Origin: Promethearchaeota archaeon
GTDB lineage: Archaea; Asgardarchaeota; Lokiarchaeia; Sigyniarchaeales; SOKP01
Assembly (NCBI GenBank): GCA_019057795.1
Contig: JAHLWS010000043.1
Span: 1 to 64,000, forward strand
Reading direction: 5' to 3'
DNA length: 64,000 nt
Position 1 is the first letter of the stretch. Every line of letters starts with the position of its first letter. The notes below the pieces were generated by a model that was not told where the DNA came from, did not search any database, and saw only the letters and a program-made list of their open reading frames with translations. A program made the translations under genes and the position numbers. Positions 52,667 through 64,000 of the stretch are shown here, piece by piece.

Positions 52667-53077
52667 GTGTATCTAATGGGTTTTGAGGAAGATAATAACG
52701 AGGAATTTGATGAAGAATTTGACGAAGATCTAGATGAAAACCTTGAGGAAGAATTAGATGAGCCTTCTACAAAGTCCCCCACGGAAGATTTTACAGTTAA
52801 AACTCCAGATGATAAAATCTCACATGAAGGAAAAAAGATTTCAGTGTATTTTCTATCAACCATAGGACCTGGTGAGAAAAAACAAAAATTACTTGTCTAT
52901 ACTGGAAATTTAGTAAGAGATATAAAAGAGACTGTAGCAAATTTGTTTGCTTTAGATCCTGCTGACTTTCATCTCTCATCCGGGGGAGTTACCATGGATG
53001 AGGGTAATCAATTAAGTGATTATAATTTGTCTGATGGAGACGATATATTACTAATTCCAGCTAGCGTTGCTGGTTGA
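52667..53077 (+). CDS. ubiquitin-like (beta-grasp) protein with acidic N-terminal extension
   Basis: VRDIKE...LSSGG...LSDYNLSDGDDILLIPASVAG*. Confidence 0.85.
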   Translation: MYLMGFEEDNNEEFDEEFDEDLDENLEEELDEPSTKSPTEDFTVKTPDDKISHEGKKISVYFLSTIGPGEKKQKLLVYTGNLVRDIKETVANLFALDPADFHLSSGGVTMDEGNQLSDYNLSDGDDILLIPASVAG

Positions 53078-53092
53078 ATAAGTTGGAAGGAT
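52931..53092 (+). repeat. direct repeat copy 1 (Ubl 3' end)
   Basis: 128 of 147 coding nt identical to 60351-60497. Confidence 0.95.
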
Positions 53093-53304
53093 CCAAAAGT
53101 TAATATTATTTTCTCCTTCTCTTTTCTCTTGAAGGAATCAAATCGGTGAGAGTTATTATGGTTTTTAGCATAGCAATTGTATGTTTTTTATTTGAATTAA
53201 AAAGTAAAAATCTTTGTTTTAATTTAGAAATCGGTCAGCATCAAAACATTTAAATACTTGACGAATCTTGTTCTTCTTAGCTCGTTTACTAGAAGAATAC
53301 TTTC

Positions 53305-54141
53305 ATGATTGAATTTAAAGTTAACGATTACGTCTCGCTTCGATTGGAAGATGAGAAGACCGTTATTTATGTAGCTGGCAAAAGGTTTAGGCAGTGTATA
53401 AATTTATTGCTATATATCCCCGTTGATGAAATACGCGAATTTGACCAAATAGAGTCTATTGACGAAGCCGCGGAAAGACTCGATAAATCGACGGAAGACG
53501 AGGTTTCACCAATAATAATTCCGGCTAAAGTTGAATTCTGGGGGCACTGCAGCAATTTACAGGTTTGGTTCGAAAAAAACTACGATACAAGAATTCTTCG
53601 TTCCAACATAGCTTTTCCGTTATTAAGAAAATTAAGCGAATCGGGCGATATGGTTGCTCTAAGAGTATTCAAAGAAGAAATCGCAAAGAGATTTTCTCAA
53701 GGGCACGATACCGTTTGCAATTTTCTAATTGAAGAAGGATACATGGACTTACTTAACAGAGAAGAGGTTCTTAGCTTAAATATCGAACAAATAGAAGTTA
53801 TACACGAATTAGAAGACTTGTTAGGAACAAGAATTAAGTTTAAGACGGGAAAACATTTATTCGAACAAGGGTTCGTGCTTGATAAAGGAATTATCAAAGG
53901 GTTAGTGTTAGACAGCTGCGATCTTGAAGAACTTCCCAAACCAGTAAGAAAACTAAAATCGTTAGAAGTACTTAAACTGCACGGTAATCGTTTAGAAACG
54001 CTTCCAGAATGGATCGGCGAACTTCGGAAATTAAAGTCTTTATATGTGCAAAACAATCGGTTGATTAGACTTCCAAACTCGCTCGGGAAGTTGAGTTCTC
54101 TTGAAAGTATAAAACTTTTTTTTTTTTTTTTATTGGCATGA
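53305..54141 (+). CDS. leucine-rich repeat protein (Loki-type N-domain), ends in a T16 run
   Basis: EFWGHCSNLQ.W...AFPLL N-domain; LxxLxLxxNxL repeats. Confidence 0.85.
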   Translation: MIEFKVNDYVSLRLEDEKTVIYVAGKRFRQCINLLLYIPVDEIREFDQIESIDEAAERLDKSTEDEVSPIIIPAKVEFWGHCSNLQVWFEKNYDTRILRSNIAFPLLRKLSESGDMVALRVFKEEIAKRFSQGHDTVCNFLIEEGYMDLLNREEVLSLNIEQIEVIHELEDLLGTRIKFKTGKHLFEQGFVLDKGIIKGLVLDSCDLEELPKPVRKLKSLEVLKLHGNRLETLPEWIGELRKLKSLYVQNNRLIRLPNSLGKLSSLESIKLFFFFLLA

Positions 54142-54258
54142 ATAATAAACCTGAAATTAATTTTACAACGCCTTCTCAAGGTAATATATCAATTTATAAA
54201 CAACTACATTATTTTTGAGATGAGGTTTATGATAATCCTACAGATTTATAGAGAAAAT

Positions 54259-54987
54259 TTAAGGAAATTGAAGGGTATTTAAAAACGATTTTGGAACTGT
54301 TCTGGCAATAGTTACTAGTTTAAATTTTATGAAATTAGATTTTGAAAGTAGTTCGATAATTCGACCTAAAGTATAACCTTGATGGAAGACATCATCAAAT
54401 ATTAACAAAGAACTGCCTTTTTCTATTTGCTCTAATAAGTCTACTGATTCCTCAAGTAAAAAGTACTTGTTATTCACATAATCTTTTCTATCTTTGTAAA
54501 AAGTTGTACTTGTTTTTTTTTCGAATAACTGATTATAAGGGATCCAAGTTAGGTTTATATTCTGAGATATTTCAGAAAATAAATTTATCATTTGTAAATT
54601 AGTTGTGGGAACCATTGTTGCATAAATTATATCCTCAATTTGCCAGTCCGAATTTGAAATTTTTTCGTTAAGAATTAGCTTTAGAATTTCATGGGAGTGT
54701 TTAAAGGGTTGCAAGCTGATTTTCCTTAATATATCTCCAAACCAATTTAAAGGATTTCCCTCATAATCTGTCTCATAAAAATGACCAGTTATGAAAGAAA
54801 TTTTGCTTTCAAGTGACTCTATACCTGAATGACATTCTTTTGGTTTATCTGAAACATTAGGGTAAAAACAAACTGGACATATTGATTTGTATTTATTTTT
54901 TAGAGCAAACTCTTCATTTGTGTCAGTATTTTTAATTATGATATCCCATGGGTCAAATCCTTTTAAATAACGAAAAGGCATATTCAT
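54259..54987 (-). CDS. ComF-like phosphoribosyltransferase-fold protein
   Basis: LLIFDDVFHQGYT PRPP-loop-like motif; CPVC...CH. Confidence 0.7.
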   Translation of the reverse strand: MNMPFRYLKGFDPWDIIIKNTDTNEEFALKNKYKSICPVCFYPNVSDKPKECHSGIESLESKISFITGHFYETDYEGNPLNWFGDILRKISLQPFKHSHEILKLILNEKISNSDWQIEDIIYATMVPTTNLQMINLFSEISQNINLTWIPYNQLFEKKTSTTFYKDRKDYVNNKYFLLEESVDLLEQIEKGSSLLIFDDVFHQGYTLGRIIELLSKSNFIKFKLVTIARTVPKSFLNTLQFP

Positions 54988-55706
54988 TATAAGATAGCTT
55001 GTGATAATAATTGTAGAAATTTAAGAATTATATTAGGTTTATGTTTTCCATATATTAAAATCGAACCGTTTTTATCAATTCTAATTGTAATCCATTTATT
55101 TTCTTGATATAACCCCTTAATTTTAATAGTTATCGCTTTTACTTGTTCTGATTGTTTAATAAGTTCAGTAATAATACCAAGTTCGTTAACATCATTTGCA
55201 TGTATATTTAATTCGTTTATTTTATCCGCTTCTATATAAGTCCTTTTAAGAATGAGTCTATGGATTTTTAAGGTAAGACCACTATTTTTTATTGATAGTA
55301 ATTTTTTCCAAACTTGCCATAACTGTTTTTCGTTAAAGATAATTGATTTAGAATCAGCTATATCACGTAAATAGACCTGTAATAAATGTTCAATCTTTTT
55401 CTCGGCTTTTCCAACTAGCAATAATTGATTATATTTTAAAATCAATTTTTCATGATTAATCCACAGAGTCTGTTTATCTTGGAACTTTTTATACTCTTCT
55501 ACTTTCATTTTAATCACAGATTTTTGCTGTATTGGTTCGAAAGAAAGATTCCTATAAGATTTTTTAGCACTTTCTACAAATAACTTTAGGGTTTGAGGAT
55601 CATCTTTATTCACTTTTACCTTACTCAAGACATCTTCATCTTCAAGATTATTTAGAGCATATTTTTCATTAATTTCTAATAATTGAAATGATGGTATTTT
55701 AATCAC
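54987..55706 (-). CDS. hypothetical protein
   Basis: 239 aa, stop overlaps next start. Confidence 0.75.
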   Translation of the reverse strand: MIKIPSFQLLEINEKYALNNLEDEDVLSKVKVNKDDPQTLKLFVESAKKSYRNLSFEPIQQKSVIKMKVEEYKKFQDKQTLWINHEKLILKYNQLLLVGKAEKKIEHLLQVYLRDIADSKSIIFNEKQLWQVWKKLLSIKNSGLTLKIHRLILKRTYIEADKINELNIHANDVNELGIITELIKQSEQVKAITIKIKGLYQENKWITIRIDKNGSILIYGKHKPNIILKFLQLLSQAIL

Positions 55707-55718
55707 ACTCTTAAATTT

Positions 55719-57401
55719 TTATATTATTATATTATTTATATCAGTTAAAAATGCATTATCTAACCTAATACGAGCAACCGGATTTGTTGTATATGGGGGA
55801 TAACCTTGACCTCCATGATTGTATTGAAAATTGAAAATTGTATTGCGAACATTTTGAATTGAACGGTCTGGATGGTTCATTGCATCTTGGTTTCCTATAA
55901 TAATTAATTTTTTCTTTGCTCTGGATAAGCCCACATACATCAGATTGAATTGTGTAAAAAAATCAGATTTAGTTCGTGGTCGAGCAAAGGTTAATGAATA
56001 TATAACTGCTTCTGCTTCTTGTCCTTGATATTGGTGTACTGTCCCAGTTCTGACATTATGATTCATAAAAATCTCAACTTGAGGTCTATAAGGGGCCGTT
56101 AATATTATATCCTCATTTGATAATACTTGATAAGCATGTCTCAATGCATAATAAACCCCGAGCGCAATCTCAGCTTCACGCTCATTTATCCTTGATCTCC
56201 CGACTGTTCGATCTAATGCTTGAGGAATATCAGAAGTATCTAAAATCACAAGAGGATGGTCAGGCTTCAATATTTCATCTAAAACATTCAATGTTTGTTG
56301 ATTAAGATTCGGAATATTATTTAAATCATAATTAGTTCTTGGTAGTACGTAATCATTTGAGGTTGTTGGAGCATCAGGAATGACGGTTCGAGGTATGGGG
56401 AGAATTCTTTCAGTTATCTGTGCTATTGCGGGATGCATTCGATATTGTCGATGTAATTCAATTCTTCTATCTATTGGAATAGGAATATTTTGATAAGTAT
56501 TCATTCCCTGTAAATATGATAGCGCGCTGACACCTAATGGAGCTAATGTAGATACAGGAGGTAATTGCTTATCATCACCGATCATACAGATGGATTGAAT
56601 TGTATGCGTGGGTATAACTTGGTAAAATTGAGGAACAGTCAATTGACTAGCTTCATCGTATATAACACCTCGTACTCTGACATTCGATCTGGGATCATTT
56701 GTTAATATTGAAAGTGAGTCAGTAGTACCAACAAAAATTAGGACCTCTCCCAATATTGCATTCCAATCTCTTTGTTGTATAAAGGTGTTACTTGGCATTC
56801 TATTATTAATAATAAAGTCATCAGGATTTAAATTTAGTCTTTGGTGTAAAACCTGAAAAGAATAAGAATCTTGAGCATACTGGGATTGTACTAATTTTAT
56901 CCTCTCAAAATAATCTGGTGTATTTGCAAGTGATGCTATTTCATGGAATTTTTCATAAATTCTGTACGCTCCAGCATTCGAAAAAGTAGCAATGAAGACT
57001 CGTTCTGGTTGACCCCTATCTCTCCTAGCTCTTAAGAGATTTCCTGGTGTAAATACTCGAAGTGCACTTCCGGAACATATAACATGTGTCTTTCCCGTAC
57101 CAGGTGGGCCTATTACTAATGTTGAAGCAACCACCTTTCGACTAATATGAAAATTATTTCCAGGATCAGTAAATGTATGGATTTGTTCTGGAGGAACGTT
57201 ACTTATACGGGCGGGTAATTGAGTTGATCTTTTATTTTGTGGAACATTTTCAATGGGATCTCTTATAGCTCGTACTGCTCTTCTCTGTTCAGAATTGAAC
57301 GGAATAGTAGGTCTTATAAACTGGACTAGCCCTGTTTGAGCATTAAGACTCTGCTCTAAAAAGTTATACAAAACCTCTTCCCAATTATTTATTTGAGCCA
57401 T
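55719..57401 (-). CDS. SF1B (Upf1/Dna2-like) helicase
   Basis: NSEQ, GPPGTGKT, SNAG, DEASQ, GDDKQLPP, QYRMHP, PYRPQ, TVHQYQGQE, VGLSRAK. Confidence 0.92.
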   Translation of the reverse strand: MAQINNWEEVLYNFLEQSLNAQTGLVQFIRPTIPFNSEQRRAVRAIRDPIENVPQNKRSTQLPARISNVPPEQIHTFTDPGNNFHISRKVVASTLVIGPPGTGKTHVICSGSALRVFTPGNLLRARRDRGQPERVFIATFSNAGAYRIYEKFHEIASLANTPDYFERIKLVQSQYAQDSYSFQVLHQRLNLNPDDFIINNRMPSNTFIQQRDWNAILGEVLIFVGTTDSLSILTNDPRSNVRVRGVIYDEASQLTVPQFYQVIPTHTIQSICMIGDDKQLPPVSTLAPLGVSALSYLQGMNTYQNIPIPIDRRIELHRQYRMHPAIAQITERILPIPRTVIPDAPTTSNDYVLPRTNYDLNNIPNLNQQTLNVLDEILKPDHPLVILDTSDIPQALDRTVGRSRINEREAEIALGVYYALRHAYQVLSNEDIILTAPYRPQVEIFMNHNVRTGTVHQYQGQEAEAVIYSLTFARPRTKSDFFTQFNLMYVGLSRAKKKLIIIGNQDAMNHPDRSIQNVRNTIFNFQYNHGGQGYPPYTTNPVARIRLDNAFLTDINNIII

Positions 57402-57421
57402 AATTTTTCTGACCTAATATA

Positions 57422-59170
57422 TTATACATATCTTGCAAATCTACCAAATGTGGCAACTCCAACTCTTTTATATCGCTCATCTAATCTACGTTCTAGGATA
57501 TCGTCTGGGCTTAATGGATTTCCAGACCGCTCAGAAAATTGGATCGCTCTAATTAATTGCTTCTTTTGTCTCTTTATGTTAAAAATATCTTCGGTAATTG
57601 ATAGTTTTCCGATGATACAATTAATATTATTCCCTCCGCCTACACTTGCCAAGTTATAAGGATTGTTTTGAATCCATGGGTTCATAGGAACTATAGGATT
57701 TATAATATAATCATTATTAACTAACCTTCTCTCGAATGATATCTTACAGTCACTTTCATAACATAAAGGGGACATCAAACAGACATCATATTTTCTATCT
57801 GAAACTTCAGGTAAAGTCCAGTGATTTGGCATTGAAGGGTGAAATATCCATTGCTGTGTATTATCTTGATATATCTCTCCAATCCAAAAACTTGAGAATT
57901 GATTTAGATCAAATAGTTGTAATGGAAAAAGTCTTGTAATTTTAAACAGTGTTTCGTGTTTAAATACAGCTTCATCTCTTAGATACCTTAAGAATTTGTA
58001 AACATTTGATTCCACTCGGTCTCTGGGAAATTGTTGATTGCTAATTCGTCTATCTTTCATCCCACACCCTTGTGTCCCACCTATTGGACAAAAGTAATCT
58101 CCTGGTATGTTTTGACCAATTTGGAAAGGACAAGGATTGAAACCTTGAAATGAATTCACTATCCCTGGATAATTTGAATATAAAAAATTTAAAATGATTG
58201 CAGCTTGTCCAGTTTCATTTTTAAAATTCTGTGTGGGATTCATTCTAATTGAATGATCAATAGTGTCTACGATAATATCAAACTCTCTAAAATTAAAATT
58301 ATTAAGATCATAATATGAACTGAAAATAACATTATCCATTGCATCATAGAGTTCGAGAGGAAGTTTTTGATTCTCCACTAATTGTGCTAAACTTTCTCTC
58401 AATATCCACATTTTATGAAATTCTTTAATGATAAAAAATAATCTAATTCCCTCTGGTGTGTTTATATTATCTCTTAGATCTATGGGAGGATCGAAAAAAT
58501 TATCTGCAATTGGAACTGGTACACGAATCTCACGATTTTTCAAGTGAATTATGGGAATAATTCCCTTGATAGCTATAAGTCCCCTCCAGTAAAAACTATT
58601 TGCGGGTCGTTGCGAGCCAATTCCGATATTTGCTCGTCTTAATTGGGTGAGTGTAACCCTTGTATTGTCTGACCTGTAGATATTAAAATCTTCATTTAAT
58701 ACATTCAAATTGAATAAGACATCACGTGACGAATGATATCTATCTAAAATATTCTCATTATTTAAGCGTTCTAAATACTGGCTAATATAATTCATAGTTC
58801 TTATATCAGAGTCTTCAGGATCTGAGTTTCCTCTAATGGAATCGAGAAGTTGTCCTGGGTCTCTGATATTCCTCATTATCGAGTCGGGATAGGTGCTTCG
58901 TGCTAATGCCCGCATCAAAACTACCGCAAACTCCCGAAATCTAGACTCAAAATTGAAATATTGCGGAAATTCTTCGTTTGGGTCATTTGGGTTTACCAAT
59001 AATCCACCCCACCTCGGAAAACTACCTCTTATCAATTCAAGAAATCGCCATCGATAACAAGGATTGCAAAATTCATCAACATCCGCAAAAGGGAAATATT
59101 TAAGATTAAAAGGTGTCCAAACTCCATCTAATATCGTTCTCTTTGATGCTCTCTTGAAACTTCTACTCAA
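57422..59170 (-). CDS. hypothetical, possible Cas4/Dna2-like Fe-S nuclease-fold protein
   Basis: N-terminal DVDEFCNPCYR and distal CPF...CP...C cluster. Confidence 0.5.
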   Translation of the reverse strand: MSRSFKRASKRTILDGVWTPFNLKYFPFADVDEFCNPCYRWRFLELIRGSFPRWGGLLVNPNDPNEEFPQYFNFESRFREFAVVLMRALARSTYPDSIMRNIRDPGQLLDSIRGNSDPEDSDIRTMNYISQYLERLNNENILDRYHSSRDVLFNLNVLNEDFNIYRSDNTRVTLTQLRRANIGIGSQRPANSFYWRGLIAIKGIIPIIHLKNREIRVPVPIADNFFDPPIDLRDNINTPEGIRLFFIIKEFHKMWILRESLAQLVENQKLPLELYDAMDNVIFSSYYDLNNFNFREFDIIVDTIDHSIRMNPTQNFKNETGQAAIILNFLYSNYPGIVNSFQGFNPCPFQIGQNIPGDYFCPIGGTQGCGMKDRRISNQQFPRDRVESNVYKFLRYLRDEAVFKHETLFKITRLFPLQLFDLNQFSSFWIGEIYQDNTQQWIFHPSMPNHWTLPEVSDRKYDVCLMSPLCYESDCKISFERRLVNNDYIINPIVPMNPWIQNNPYNLASVGGGNNINCIIGKLSITEDIFNIKRQKKQLIRAIQFSERSGNPLSPDDILERRLDERYKRVGVATFGRFARYV

Positions 59171-60015
59171 TCTAAATCACCCCATGGTATTATTTTAATA
59201 TTCAAATCTACCATCCTTACATATACTAATTCGTTTATAATGTCTGCAATTTCATCTAATTCCTCATCCATAGTTTTATCACACTTATTGTCTGACTTTA
59301 GTTTCAGATATTGTGCTAAAATAACTCTTTTAAATATTGGTAAATCGTCATACTTGTAAATTATTTTTTCTTTTCTTATTTCAAGTAAAGATATAATCCA
59401 CTTGAATAATAAATGTAGAGAAAGGACAATATCAATCTCTTCATCACTCAATTTGGAAAAAAAAGACTTAAAATCTTCTTCATACATATCCAATTGATAT
59501 CTAGCATAATTAATTAGTGTTGCATCATCGGTATCGTCATTCTCTTCATCAAATAGATTATCATAAAGCAATTTTTCTAAACTTGAAGGAATGCAGATAT
59601 CATTTGATGCAATAAAAGATATAAACCCATGGTATTTCCGATCTTTTCTCCATTTTTCCATTAATGTCTTATCTGTGGATATGAGTTCATATAAATGTTT
59701 ACAAATGGTATTAGGGCTAAAGGGAATGATTCTAAATACTTTTTTTGATGTTTTGCTGATATTTTCAGTCTCATTTGGTTTATCTTTTTTTTCAGATAGA
59801 ATTTTTATACAGACGGGAAAATCCTCATCGGGGTATGTTTCTTTCAAGTTCATTAAAATAGCCCATAATTTAGATGCTAAGAGCTCTTGTTTTATTTTTG
59901 AATAATTAATATTGAGATTGAAATGAGGACAATTGCTATTAAATGACCCTATAAGTTTTTCAAGTTCTTTTTTAGGTGTATTTAAAAGAACTTTCCTTAA
60001 TTCCATTTTGTCCAT
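59167..60015 (-). CDS. hypothetical helical protein, first gene of operon
   Basis: 282 aa; 4-nt overlap with next gene. Confidence 0.75.
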   Translation of the reverse strand: MDKMELRKVLLNTPKKELEKLIGSFNSNCPHFNLNINYSKIKQELLASKLWAILMNLKETYPDEDFPVCIKILSEKKDKPNETENISKTSKKVFRIIPFSPNTICKHLYELISTDKTLMEKWRKDRKYHGFISFIASNDICIPSSLEKLLYDNLFDEENDDTDDATLINYARYQLDMYEEDFKSFFSKLSDEEIDIVLSLHLLFKWIISLLEIRKEKIIYKYDDLPIFKRVILAQYLKLKSDNKCDKTMDEELDEIADIINELVYVRMVDLNIKIIPWGDLD

Positions 60016-60350
60016 ATTTCCCTAGAAGAGATAGAATACTTTTATATAAAAACATTATTAATACATATTTAATATTTTAAAAAAATCAGAGATGAGACTG
60101 ATTTTCTAATTTTATTTATAAACGTAAGAAGAAATAAGAAACTTATTCTACTTTATTTTTATTTTTTATTTTATTGTATTATAGCATCGTTTTTGCTCGT
60201 TTTTAGATTATAAAAGATTTTTTATAAAAGTATCTACTAGTAAATTAAAATTTTTTCCAAAGCATTTTATGTACTATTGCTTTTGATTTTCACACATCTC
60301 TTGCATTTTCTTCTCTCTAAAAAACTCTAAGGATTAAAAATGGAGATTTT

Positions 60351-60512
60351 ACTGTAGCAAATTTGTTTGCTTTAGATCCTGCAGATTTTCATTTATCTTC
60401 GGGGGGAGTCACTATGGATGAAACTTCGATGTTAAGTGATTATAATTTGTCTGATGGAGATGATATCTTACTAATTCCAGCTAGCGTTGCTGGTTGAATA
60501 GGTTGGAAAGAT
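60351..60512 (+). pseudogene. 5'-truncated Ubl copy / direct repeat copy 2
   Basis: TVANLFALDPADFHLSSGGVTMDETSMLSDYNLSDGDDILLIPASVAG*; no in-frame start. Confidence 0.9.
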
Positions 60513-60621
60513 ATAGACAATTTAATAATATTATTATCTTTTTTCACTTCTATTTTTTTTTTTTCTTGATGGAATTAGCGCACTAGTAATTACGCGTCTT
60601 AATTTAAAATAGAAATGTATT

Positions 60622-61002
60622 CTAATTGAGTTTTTTAAGAGCTTCAATCTCCTTCATATAGGATTTCTCAAGAATCTCGTAACATTCAAGACAGTACCAC
60701 ACTTTGTCTCTCAGGCTGAAAATATGATCTCCTTCGATATCTCGGCAAGTTGCGCAAACGACTATTGAAGCAGAAAAGTTCTTTCGAAGATTGCTTGCTT
60801 GATCGATAACTGGCCTAACTGCAAGCAAATAATTGTCATAACTTAAAACAAGAGCTGCCCTTTTGGCTTGTAGCCTTGCTCGCTCCTCGTGAAATTCATT
60901 TAATCTTTTTTGGTAATCTTTTAAAAGAACGCGCCGAAATTCTAAGCGTATCTTCCGCAACTTTGGATTTTTTAATTTTATTAGTCTTTCTCTTTCTCTC
61001 AA
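60622..61002 (-). CDS. hypothetical Zn-finger protein
   Basis: CATC...WYCLECY. Confidence 0.7.
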   Translation of the reverse strand: MRERERLIKLKNPKLRKIRLEFRRVLLKDYQKRLNEFHEERARLQAKRAALVLSYDNYLLAVRPVIDQASNLRKNFSASIVVCATCRDIEGDHIFSLRDKVWYCLECYEILEKSYMKEIEALKKLN

Positions 61003-61095
61003 ACCGGGCGCCTGCTTTTTATTGCTTATTTAACAAAACATGTTACACAAAAAACAATAATAATATTTAAACTAATAGTCTCTGGAATTTATAGC

Positions 61096-61578
61096 TTAAA
61101 TGTATCTGATTATCTTTACGAAACTTCTGGGCAACACTCCAGGTAACATCGAATCAAAGACCTTGAAGTCTTCCGTGCTTCCTAATACGCCTATCACTTT
61201 TGATAGCTGAATCTTTTTTACCAAGTTAAGCTGTTTGGTAAAAACCGAGTTGAAATCTGTATTTAAAAACCCTGAATATCCATTGTCTTGAATTTCTACC
61301 CCCCGATCGTTCCATACTTTAAGAGAGGCCTCTAAATCGTTATCATTTAATTCTAATATTTTCTCATAGACTCCTCGCCATTCGGCACCAAAATTATGTT
61401 TCAGAGCGGTGATTAAATCTTGCTCGGTTATTTGTCTAATCTTACCACTCGCGTCTCGCAATCTATCTAGCTCCACTATAGTTCCTAAAAGTGCTTCTAT
61501 GTAAGCTTCGGCTACACGAGGGCCCAATTCCTTAAAAAGAGGTTCAAAATCTTTCTTATGATAGCTTTTCGAGGTCAT
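61096..61578 (-). CDS. hypothetical protein
   Basis: Probable start MTSKSY at 61578 within track ORF 61096..61776. Confidence 0.6.
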   Translation of the reverse strand: MTSKSYHKKDFEPLFKELGPRVAEAYIEALLGTIVELDRLRDASGKIRQITEQDLITALKHNFGAEWRGVYEKILELNDNDLEASLKVWNDRGVEIQDNGYSGFLNTDFNSVFTKQLNLVKKIQLSKVIGVLGSTEDFKVFDSMLPGVLPRSFVKIIRYI

Positions 61579-61593
61579 AGCAAAATCGCCAAA

Positions 61594-61743
61594 GTGGAGA
61601 TTTACAACGGTAAAAAAGAAAAAATAAGAGAAAACGAATCTTGTTTCTATTGTGGAAGCACAAATACAGAAACTTTCAAACATTGCAACGGTTTGATGTT
61701 TGAGATTCATTGCAACAGTTGTGGAGAAAATTCCATTTATTAA
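61594..61743 (+). CDS. possible small Zn-ribbon protein
   Basis: CFYCG...CNSCG. Confidence 0.35.
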   Translation: MEIYNGKKEKIRENESCFYCGSTNTETFKHCNGLMFEIHCNSCGENSIY

Positions 61744-61937
61744 ACACGGAGATAATTTACTATCGTAATGCTTCAAGAATTCTGGTATTAGTTTTGCTTT
61801 ATATACTTGTTTGCGTTCTTAATTCCTACCAAAATCAAAAAATTTACATGATGGAAAATGATAGAATTCAATTTAATTCATTATTGAATTGCTTAACTAA
61901 GTATTATTAATACCTACAAGTACTGCGAGCTAATAAT

Positions 61938-62723
61938 TTACTTTCTCGATGGAATCAGGGCTATTTCGTCGTCATCGTCAATAGGAAAGCCCCTTATCGG
62001 CTTAGATTCGTCTAATAAAATCCCCCCAGATGACAATAGAAAATCTTCTAGATTATAATCAAATAATATTCCAACTTTTTCTTTAATGACACTTACTAAT
62101 TCAGACGTATCAATAATGAGAATCTTAGTTTTCTCACCTGATTCGACTAATGACCTTACATAAACACGTATTTTCTCATCCATTCCAATGGTATGCAATG
62201 GTGGGTTGTATATCACCTGTTCCTCAGTTAGGCTCTTGGTTTCTAACATATCTTCAATTAACTGTTTTCTCTCGTAAGCGTTAAAATACAACATTTCCCT
62301 AATAAAAAATATTTTATCCATTTTTGATAATCCTAAGAGATTAATTTTAGCTATTTGCTCTTTACTAAAAATAGTAAAAATATAATCATCCATCGATTCT
62401 ATTTCTTCAAACGATTCCAACGCATTCGCATATTTATCTACTAAAGGCATTGCATCAAAGTAATCCTCAAGTAGAGCACTACTTTTTTTCTTAAGTGGTT
62501 TTTGTTTAGGAAAAGATTTAATGCCTTTCATCTTCACAATAGGGATACTTTTAGATTGAAAAACCGTGTAGATAGTGCCTGTGGATAGCACAGCAACACT
62601 CCCAATTGTTAAAAAGAGATATACTGGAACATTTTCTACTTGTAAAAATATAAGAATCAAATAGATAAATGCAATCCCTACATAAAGAGTAATGAGACTT
62701 AATATTCTATAATTCTTTCTCAT
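61938..62723 (-). CDS. membrane-anchored protein with C-terminal ubiquitin-like domain
   Basis: Two N-terminal TM helices; C-terminus aligns with 52667 Ubl (GEK...LSSGG...DDDEIALIP) but ends SRK. Confidence 0.82.
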   Translation of the reverse strand: MRKNYRILSLITLYVGIAFIYLILIFLQVENVPVYLFLTIGSVAVLSTGTIYTVFQSKSIPIVKMKGIKSFPKQKPLKKKSSALLEDYFDAMPLVDKYANALESFEEIESMDDYIFTIFSKEQIAKINLLGLSKMDKIFFIREMLYFNAYERKQLIEDMLETKSLTEEQVIYNPPLHTIGMDEKIRVYVRSLVESGEKTKILIIDTSELVSVIKEKVGILFDYNLEDFLLSSGGILLDESKPIRGFPIDDDDEIALIPSRK

Positions 62724-63751: not shown

Positions 63752-64000
63752 ATGAGTTTTGACAACGATTTTGATGAGGAATTAGAACCAGTTAAATCTA
63801 AAACCCCATCAAGTAAAACACCCTCAACAGGCAGAAAGTTGACTTTATATTTCATGTCAACTATTGGTCCTGGTGAAAAGAAGGAAAAATTAACTGTGAA
63901 TGACGCTAATAATGTAAGTGACATTAAACGAACATTAGGAAATTTATATGGACTTGATCCTGAAGAATTTCACCTCTCATCCGGAGGAGTTACCATGGAT
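63752..64000 (+). CDS. ubiquitin-like paralog (runs off window end)
   Basis: MSFDNDFDEELEPVKSKTPSSKTPSTGRKLTLYFMSTIGPGEKKEKL...FHLSSGGVTMD. Confidence 0.88.
   Translation, partial: MSFDNDFDEELEPVKSKTPSSKTPSTGRKLTLYFMSTIGPGEKKEKLTVNDANNVSDIKRTLGNLYGLDPEEFHLSSGGVTMD

Follow-up and report, generated by a model that had tools for sequence, protein, structure and literature searches.

Variable-cargo hotspots between core genes, known as 'additive' flexible genomic islands or defence-island hotspots, are an established class of site in microbial genomes. More specific routes have been described for DNA that comes to lie behind a protein-coding gene. Homology-facilitated illegitimate recombination (HFIR) has been proposed for the displacement arrays at Rhs, contact-dependent inhibition (CDI), and type VI secretion system (T6SS) effector–immunity loci (Kirchberger et al. 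2017, PMC5361080). Prophage e14, as well as phage 21, integrated in the icd gene of Escherichia coli, leaving the 3' pseudogene icdC (PMC13626634). Among Asgard archaea, integrated mobile genetic elements (iMGEs) of Atabeyarchaeia and aloposons have been reported, and those with tyrosine integrases are described as using short att motifs, for example of 11 bp (PMC11529989). Here, we analysed a stretch of 64,000 nucleotides (the window; positions 1–64,000 of contig JAHLWS010000043.1, assembly GCA_019057795.1) from a Promethearchaeota archaeon of the Lokiarchaeia, in which approximately 8.9 kb of borrowed genes, divided into islands A and B, lies between two tail-to-tail ubiquitin-like (Ubl) genes, Ubl1 and Par, in one strain. 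The locus is an archaeal case of an already known kind of recombination scar, real but fairly ordinary, and illustrates, through its empty sites and alternative cargo, how an Asgard archaeon gains accessory and defence-like genes with no integrase dedicated to the task.

Ubl1 (52667–53077, plus strand) is a functional ubiquitin-like open reading frame (ORF) of 136 amino acids with a weak Pfam ubiquitin match, and its orthologs across Promethearchaeota are 60–94% identical. Its 3' part occurs twice. A repeat search recovered two blocks (52931–53001/60351–60421 and 53012–53092/60432–60512) in register at a spacing of 7420 bp, so that the direct repeat reported in a preliminary description of the window, made from the sequence alone, is real. 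Copy 1 (52931–53092, plus strand) is the working 3' end of Ubl1, consisting of 48 codons, the stop codon, and 15 nt, and copy 2 (60351–60512) lacks a start codon in its frame, since the ATG at 60340 lies in a different one. The first 32 nt of the two copies are identical, 19 mismatches occur in the 147-nt coding part, and the only residue change is GNQ in copy 1 to TSM in copy 2, all as previously noted; over the full 162 nt, there are 21 mismatches. When the assembly itself was searched with Ubl1, only the two repeat copies and the paralog Ub3 (match at 63785–64078) were found. The insert is thus flanked by a direct duplication of the 3' part of its protein-coding target, with the proximal copy completing the gene and the displaced copy differing mostly synonymously, as is also the case for e14 in icd.

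The nearest named relatives of the strain are the Promethearchaeota (Lokiarchaeia) metagenome-assembled genomes (MAGs) Loki_b31 and ABR02 (G020, approximately 92% nucleotide identity). In the ancestral layout, the stop codon of Ubl1 is followed by 35–73 nt and then by the stop codon of the convergent gene Par. This empty junction was found in 18 of 21 congeners, at 57 of 62 metagenome loci from the Joint Genome Institute (JGI), and in 68 of 71 species-representative genomes. Contigs that match the window at 97–100% identity over the left flank are effectively conspecific; three of these (L043, L046, and L047) are empty, and two (L044 and L045) contain a 2-kb insert encoding a lysyl-tRNA synthetase (LysRS). 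Comparison with empty sites therefore bears out the insertion, in that the arrangement is not shared by all relatives and conspecific contigs are either empty or carry other cargo. Because relatives retain empty sites, the insertion at the 3' end of Ubl1 is genuinely strain-specific. In one genome (bin132, G154), Ubl1 and Par lie far apart, and it was uninformative in this respect.

The resemblance of copy 2 to the empty site continues past 60512, through the spacer and seven codons of Par (ALIPSRK), and ends sharply at 60582. Of the 21 variable sites, 19 have the same state in copy 2 and in the conspecific contig L047, and the spacer behind copy 2 is 96.5% identical to that of Loki_b31 (L150) and 92% identical to that of L043. 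Since copy 2, the spacer, and the Par tail all match resident alleles, the segment at 60351–60582 (plus strand) is an intact, stranded piece of the ancestral empty site, comprising the displaced Ubl1 3' end (to 60497), the entire spacer, and the last seven codons of Par (60560–60582, minus strand). On this sequence evidence, copy 2 is the resident Ubl1 allele, displaced; this agrees with the preliminary description, which had taken the distal copy for the resident end, and the match to conspecific empty-site alleles extends throughout the segment. The resident gene end has been kept downstream of the cargo, contiguous with the resident flank, as expected of a displacement event. The preliminary description had also proposed the 32-nt identical core as the point of recombination. 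However, the same 32 nt are invariant across all close relatives, so their identity is uninformative and provides no evidence for an att core or a crossover site at this position. No tRNA, Rfam family, or terminator-like site was found at the junctions.

Most of the divergence between the two copies leads to a third gene. Ub3 (63752–64000, plus strand, continuing to 64084 beyond the window), an operonic ubiquitin gene located 11 kb downstream of Ubl1, is the donor of a patch at 52973–53011 (plus strand) that turns TSM into GNQ. In an alignment of copy 1, copy 2, and Ub3, 15 of the 19 coding differences fell within the patch, and copy 1 was the same as Ub3 at all 15; at a sixteenth, position 53041, copy 1 likewise has the Ub3 state. 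Copy 1 and Ub3 were identical at 42 of 46 positions over 52972–53017, at 46 of 72 upstream, and at 40 of 57 downstream. Throughout the clade, GNQ occurred in every Ub3 and I/T-S-M in every Ubl1, and the patch was found only in the working Ubl1 of this strain. The locus therefore combines a tract that is near-identical even at synonymous sites with diverged flanks and orthologs that lack the patch, as is typical of conversion between paralogs. The other coding differences (52963, 52966, and 53047) are mostly polymorphisms that are also present among the conspecific contigs. Taken together, the pattern is that of a short Ub3-to-Ubl1 gene conversion and not of a second allele that diverged under purifying selection. 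The earlier proposal that both alleles had evolved under purifying selection fails for this reason, because 16 of the 19 differences were copied from Ub3 and are missing from the Ubl1 of congeners. Ubiquitin paralogs in these genomes thus undergo gene conversion that can mimic allele swapping, and comparison within the genus suggests that conversion from Ub3 to Ubl1 is recurrent. The locus differs in this respect from e14, which has its own integrase and excises site-specifically; no integrase was found here, and most of the differences come from paralog gene conversion, not from an element-borne allele. The Ubl1 genes of some other species (also G005, L048, and G002) have Ub3-like states in the same loop (DENDQ and DEDNQ). 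The Ubl1 of G015 (L148 = G015:C88, compared with L147 = G015:C37) also looks converted, with a match of approximately 36 nt.

The preliminary description had treated the insert as one discrete island, but it proved to be a mosaic of several pieces, followed by a second insert. Island A begins, behind copy 1, with a spacer of unknown origin (53093–53221), in which three short blocks weakly resemble the junction spacer and the Par tail, with no significant BLAST match. Homology of 53093–53140 to the spacer and Par tail was convincing in a MAFFT alignment, but there was no BLAST match to approximately 190 loci, and we retain the resemblance as weak only. The spacer is followed by a leucine-rich repeat (LRR) gene unit (53222–54114, plus strand), the ORF of which (53305–54141) is cut off at a poly-T run (54117–54134). 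This unit shows 82–85% nucleotide identity to sequences in other contexts (G015:C37 and G004:C75), where the protein has its full length of 343 amino acids. In G015 (L147, 430–3527), the 343-amino-acid LRR ortholog lies together with a 181-amino-acid ORF between Ub3 and E1, splitting the spacer of the Ub–E1 operon, and no flanking duplication was found at that insertion.

The main cargo of island A is a five-gene cassette (54242–60115, minus strand) encoding a phosphoribosyltransferase (PRTase)-like protein of 242 amino acids, a 239-amino-acid protein, a superfamily 1 (SF1) helicase of 560 amino acids, a nuclease-like protein of 582 amino acids, and a 282-amino-acid protein. Copies that are 98% identical occur with different flanks on both sides in L037 and in a contig of sample X4, and the same five-gene order (54259–60015 in the window) was found in the metagenome contigs L033–L036, beside restriction–modification (R-M), Mrr, reverse transcriptase (RT), and transposase genes. 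PADLOC yielded only partial matches (an MkoA-like helicase C-terminus and a PsyrT-like PRTase) and assigned the cassette to no system, which makes it a candidate defence system outside the PADLOC set. The 239- and 282-amino-acid proteins received no assignment. The 582-amino-acid protein had no relative in the 153 other genomes of the order, and its predicted fold (21 homologs, pLDDT 70) showed only weak matches, to nucleases of the Dna2/Cas4/AddB/Exo5 type; a search of a protein atlas returned nothing for this protein or for the 282-amino-acid protein. No terminal inverted or direct repeats of the cassette were detected beyond T-rich low complexity. The right end of island A is a stray fragment (60119–60255, plus strand), without resemblance to the Ubl locus, that carries the final codons of cdhC (acetyl-CoA synthase beta) and the spacer behind them; it is 96.6% identical to the cdhC tail of the same genome (C11:17245–17301), 96% to G139, and 85% to G005. 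When all eight ORFs of the insert were scanned against Pfam, PADLOC, and PHROGs, no integrase or recombinase was found, in agreement with the earlier statement that none is encoded inside; elsewhere, the genome has genes for four tyrosine recombinases. Exact-protein look-ups with Ubl1, the LRR protein, and the 282-amino-acid protein retrieved no independent contigs. As described (PMC11529989), the Asgard iMGEs and aloposons are similar in being strain-variable chromosomal inserts of a few to tens of kilobases, some with defence genes, and those with tyrosine integrases differ in that island A has neither an integrase nor such a short att motif.

Island B (60583–61937, minus strand), which contains a 126-amino-acid Zn-ribbon/coiled-coil gene and a 226-amino-acid gene, is absent from the sites of congeners, and the gene pair occurs together in another genus. 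The 126-amino-acid protein (60622–61002, minus strand) belongs to a large multi-copy family, present in 65 of 135 family genomes with several copies each, often in tandem or at contig ends. Par (61938–62723, minus strand) encodes a convergent 261-amino-acid protein with a C-terminal Ubl domain. The last approximately eight codons (approximately 20 nt) of its working end are a non-clade allele, identical to that of G014. Since Par has a displaced and a replacement end just as Ubl1 does, both convergent genes carry a displaced resident end plus a replacement end. A third, degenerate Ubl1 tail to the left of the Par stop codon (approximately 61901–61933, VLLIPTSTAS*) was considered and rejected, as it was not significant against shuffled sequences (p = 0.13).

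Other cargo occupies the same junction in related genomes. A divergent class-I LysRS paralog was found there in three species (G008, L026 5422–7230; L044/L045, L045:2679–4679; and L064), to which the housekeeping LysRS is only 29% identical, and genes for the alpha and beta subunits of a 2-oxoacid dehydrogenase E1 were found in G002 and L052. The LysRS cassettes are 96–98% identical between species, whereas their flanks are 74–84% identical, and the switch points lie at 14 nt past the Ubl1 stop codon and within the last approximately 30 nt of Par, without duplication. Because the cassette is far more alike than its flanks, the conserved gene tails serve as short homology arms for clean exchange of cassettes from one species to another, and the sequence comparison indicates recent inter-species transfer of LysRS into one site. 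As the site may be empty or contain the LysRS paralog, E1 alpha/beta, or islands A and B, the tail-to-tail Ubl1/Par junction is a gene-gain hotspot in this Lokiarchaeon lineage, with a low occupancy of approximately 5–8% of the surveyed loci at which both genes were found. The earlier suggestion that the Ubl gene is an integration hotspot is upheld by the other cargo in relatives, but the gene is not special, since eight other genes of the same genome have candidate scars. Like known variable-cargo hotspots, the junction is empty or differently filled in close strains, receives defence-like cassettes, and shows flank recombination between species; it differs in its Lokiarchaeon host, its position at a ubiquitin locus, and its low occupancy.

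The eight further candidate islets were detected by self-comparison of the genome (G000) followed by an ORF filter, and they share the same layout, i.e., a gene, its working 3' end, 0.7–3.4 kb of cargo, and a 3'-end fragment without the 5' part. They are located at C11:44880–48606, C58:39273–40167, C60:6599–8452, C62:14108–15727, C79:13601–15374, C79:87565–88982, C80:32260–34389, and C82:80979–83195. The repeated 3' ends are 53–201 nt long and 85–98% identical. The target genes, of which seven were scanned, are unrelated (SCP2-like, CCG-domain, UDP-glucose dehydrogenase, S33 hydrolase, GNAT, and others), as is the cargo, which includes an ABC transporter operon, an esterase, an HEPN-MNT pair, PIN, PEMT-like genes, and a major facilitator superfamily (MFS) transporter. 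None of the 13 scanned cargo ORFs encoded a recombinase; the islet in C58 had no scannable cargo ORF. The HEPN-MNT islet, the only one of the eight that was compared with relatives, has an empty site in three congeners and different cargo in a fourth. When the Ubl1 locus is counted as the ninth islet, six have repeats that open, on the 5' side, with an exact core of 22–85 nt, with mismatches only after it, and no motif shared among the cores was seen by eye. The displacement layout is thus not tied to one target sequence and recurs at unrelated genes.

On this evidence, the site was probably filled in several steps by host recombination, without a self-encoded integrase, through homology-anchored illegitimate insertion; we infer the recombination mechanism and the order of events from the structure of the scar. 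Island A would have arrived on DNA with a left end homologous to the Ubl1 3' region and a non-homologous right end, the cdhC-tail fragment. One crossover in Ubl1 and one illegitimate join at codon −48 would have placed the cargo behind an incoming, near-conspecific Ubl1 end and shifted the resident end 7.4 kb downstream. This process could have been HFIR, one-ended copy-and-switch repair, or the single-crossover pop-in of a circularised fragment. In a mirror-image event at the last seven codons of Par, island B would have been added, with 232 nt of the ancestral junction left isolated between the cargos. Afterwards, or in the same repair event, the conversion patch would have overwritten approximately 40 nt of the working Ubl1 end, and this patch from Ub3 would have created nearly all of the apparent allelic divergence. 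Where both arms were homologous, a clean exchange would have resulted, as with LysRS, and where only one was, the resident end would have been displaced, as with island A. We favour homology-anchored insertion because the targets are many, the repeat lengths vary, no recombinases were found, the mosaic cargo includes the tails of other genes, and the right end of island A does not resemble the Ubl locus. The earlier view that incoming DNA with its own Ubl 3' half displaced the resident end therefore stands in part: the insertion is real and the distal copy is the resident one, but the identical core is no evidence for the event and the apparent allele is the Ub3 patch.

This mode of insertion resembles the displacement arrays (PMC5361080), in which DNA anchored in the conserved part of a gene brings a new 3' end with cargo, the old 3' end is orphaned downstream, no recombinase is needed, and repeated events stack. 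In contrast to those arrays, the present case comes from an Asgard archaeon and affects ordinary genes (Ubl, UDP-glucose dehydrogenase, GNAT, and others), whose alternative ends are functionally equivalent and do not form polymorphic toxin tips; the mechanism here is an inferred one. A broader version of the same idea is conceivable, albeit tentatively, in which Lokiarchaeia place foreign cassettes behind genes by a general route that needs no integrase: in the 3' region of a gene, a broken end would copy a homologous donor with template switches, leaving an exact 5' core, a donor-type end, cargo, and a displaced end, the Ub3 patch would be a by-product, and the nine islets would be footprints of one host pathway. 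If so, they would reflect a host process that shapes gene gain in Asgard archaea.

The assembly of the locus is supported by the depth in a sister sample (X2), which is even, at 9–11, across the flanks and both islands. Contigs of X2 support the copy-1/LRR and island-A/core junctions, and the Logan contig L042 supports the island B junction. The Logan k=31 contigs of X2 all break inside the 32-nt core (52960 and 60380), with no independent contig bridging it, so the pairing of the arms, and with it the choice between an integrated and a circular form, depends solely on the original assembly. In runs from other studies (X3, X4, and X7), cover is deep on the flanks and approximately zero over the LRR region and island B, and the cassette reaches at most 5–13×. 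These depths and the missing cover are compatible with strain-specificity but were given no weight as evidence; the contigs listed for these runs included no empty-site joint. Several observations weigh against homology-anchored insertion. In addition to the dependence of the arm pairing on one assembly, no donor with island A at this site was found. The repeats of six among the nine islets open with at least 22 exactly matching nt, which would also fit an att-like crossover core, and two breakpoints fall in Par-tail-like sequence within approximately 4 nt of each other, one of them on weak homology, which hints at site preference.

Some of these points lend themselves to other explanations. 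Island A may be, or may have been, a site-specific integrative element of the e14/icd type, with an attP containing the last 48 codons of Ubl1, a 32-nt crossover core, and an integrase acting in trans or lost under later cargo. The topology is classical in this sense (5' part of the gene, replacement end, cargo, displaced end), the repeat opens at its 5' edge with the exact core, a feature shared with several other islets, four tyrosine recombinases are available elsewhere in the genome, and e14 with its icdC fragment is a precedent (PMC13626634). Nevertheless, we consider such an element unlikely: neither the island nor its immediate surroundings yielded a recombinase, the 32 nt do not vary in any close relative anyway, viral contigs yielded neither a fragment of Ubl1 nor a relative of the cassette, and among approximately 140 loci, there was no second displaced Ubl1 fragment or reuse of the junction. 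Nine different target genes without a common motif by inspection also argue against one enzyme, and fragments of other loci make up part of the mosaic cargo. Alternatively, the junction segment may have been duplicated or rearranged locally long ago, the cargo having come between the copies later and no replacement end having been brought in. This would account for the finding that the coding copies differ at only four sites outside the Ub3 patch, and the weak spacer-like and Par-tail-like blocks behind copy 1 could then be a decayed first copy. Those four sites, however, are standing polymorphisms shared with different conspecific contigs, the sequence past 15 nt from the stop codon is unalignable by BLAST although the coding part is approximately 96% identical, conspecific strains carry a plain empty site, and the cassette, 98% identical to copies elsewhere, is a recent arrival, all of which make a local duplication improbable. 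Finally, mis-pairing of the assembly across the 32-nt repeat would mean that the chromosome has the copy-2 end and that island A is a 7420-bp circle, or that both forms coexist. The unbridged core would permit this, and the alternative pairing gives a chromosome identical to conspecific alleles. Yet sequencing reads are far longer than 32 nt, the X2 depth is even across flanks and island, eight further candidate islets in the assembly show this integrated topology as well, and a circle without a replication or integration gene would be odd; we therefore regard mis-pairing as very improbable.

Two further observations concern genes that adjoin or contributed to the islands. The 3' end and terminator region of cdhC is duplicated downstream of cdhC in G139 (L241 = G139:C202, 172–232 and 499–657) and in G131 (L240 = G131:C16, 2456–7240), and the tail-to-tail junction of cdhC may be another insertion hotspot. 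In Par, a single clean breakpoint was sought and rejected, as sliding identity revealed a generally variable gene instead. Par shows 82–88% amino acid identity between near-conspecific contigs, compared with 95–100% for its neighbours, and its identity patterns are mosaic among strains, suggesting frequent recombination or diversifying selection in this gene.

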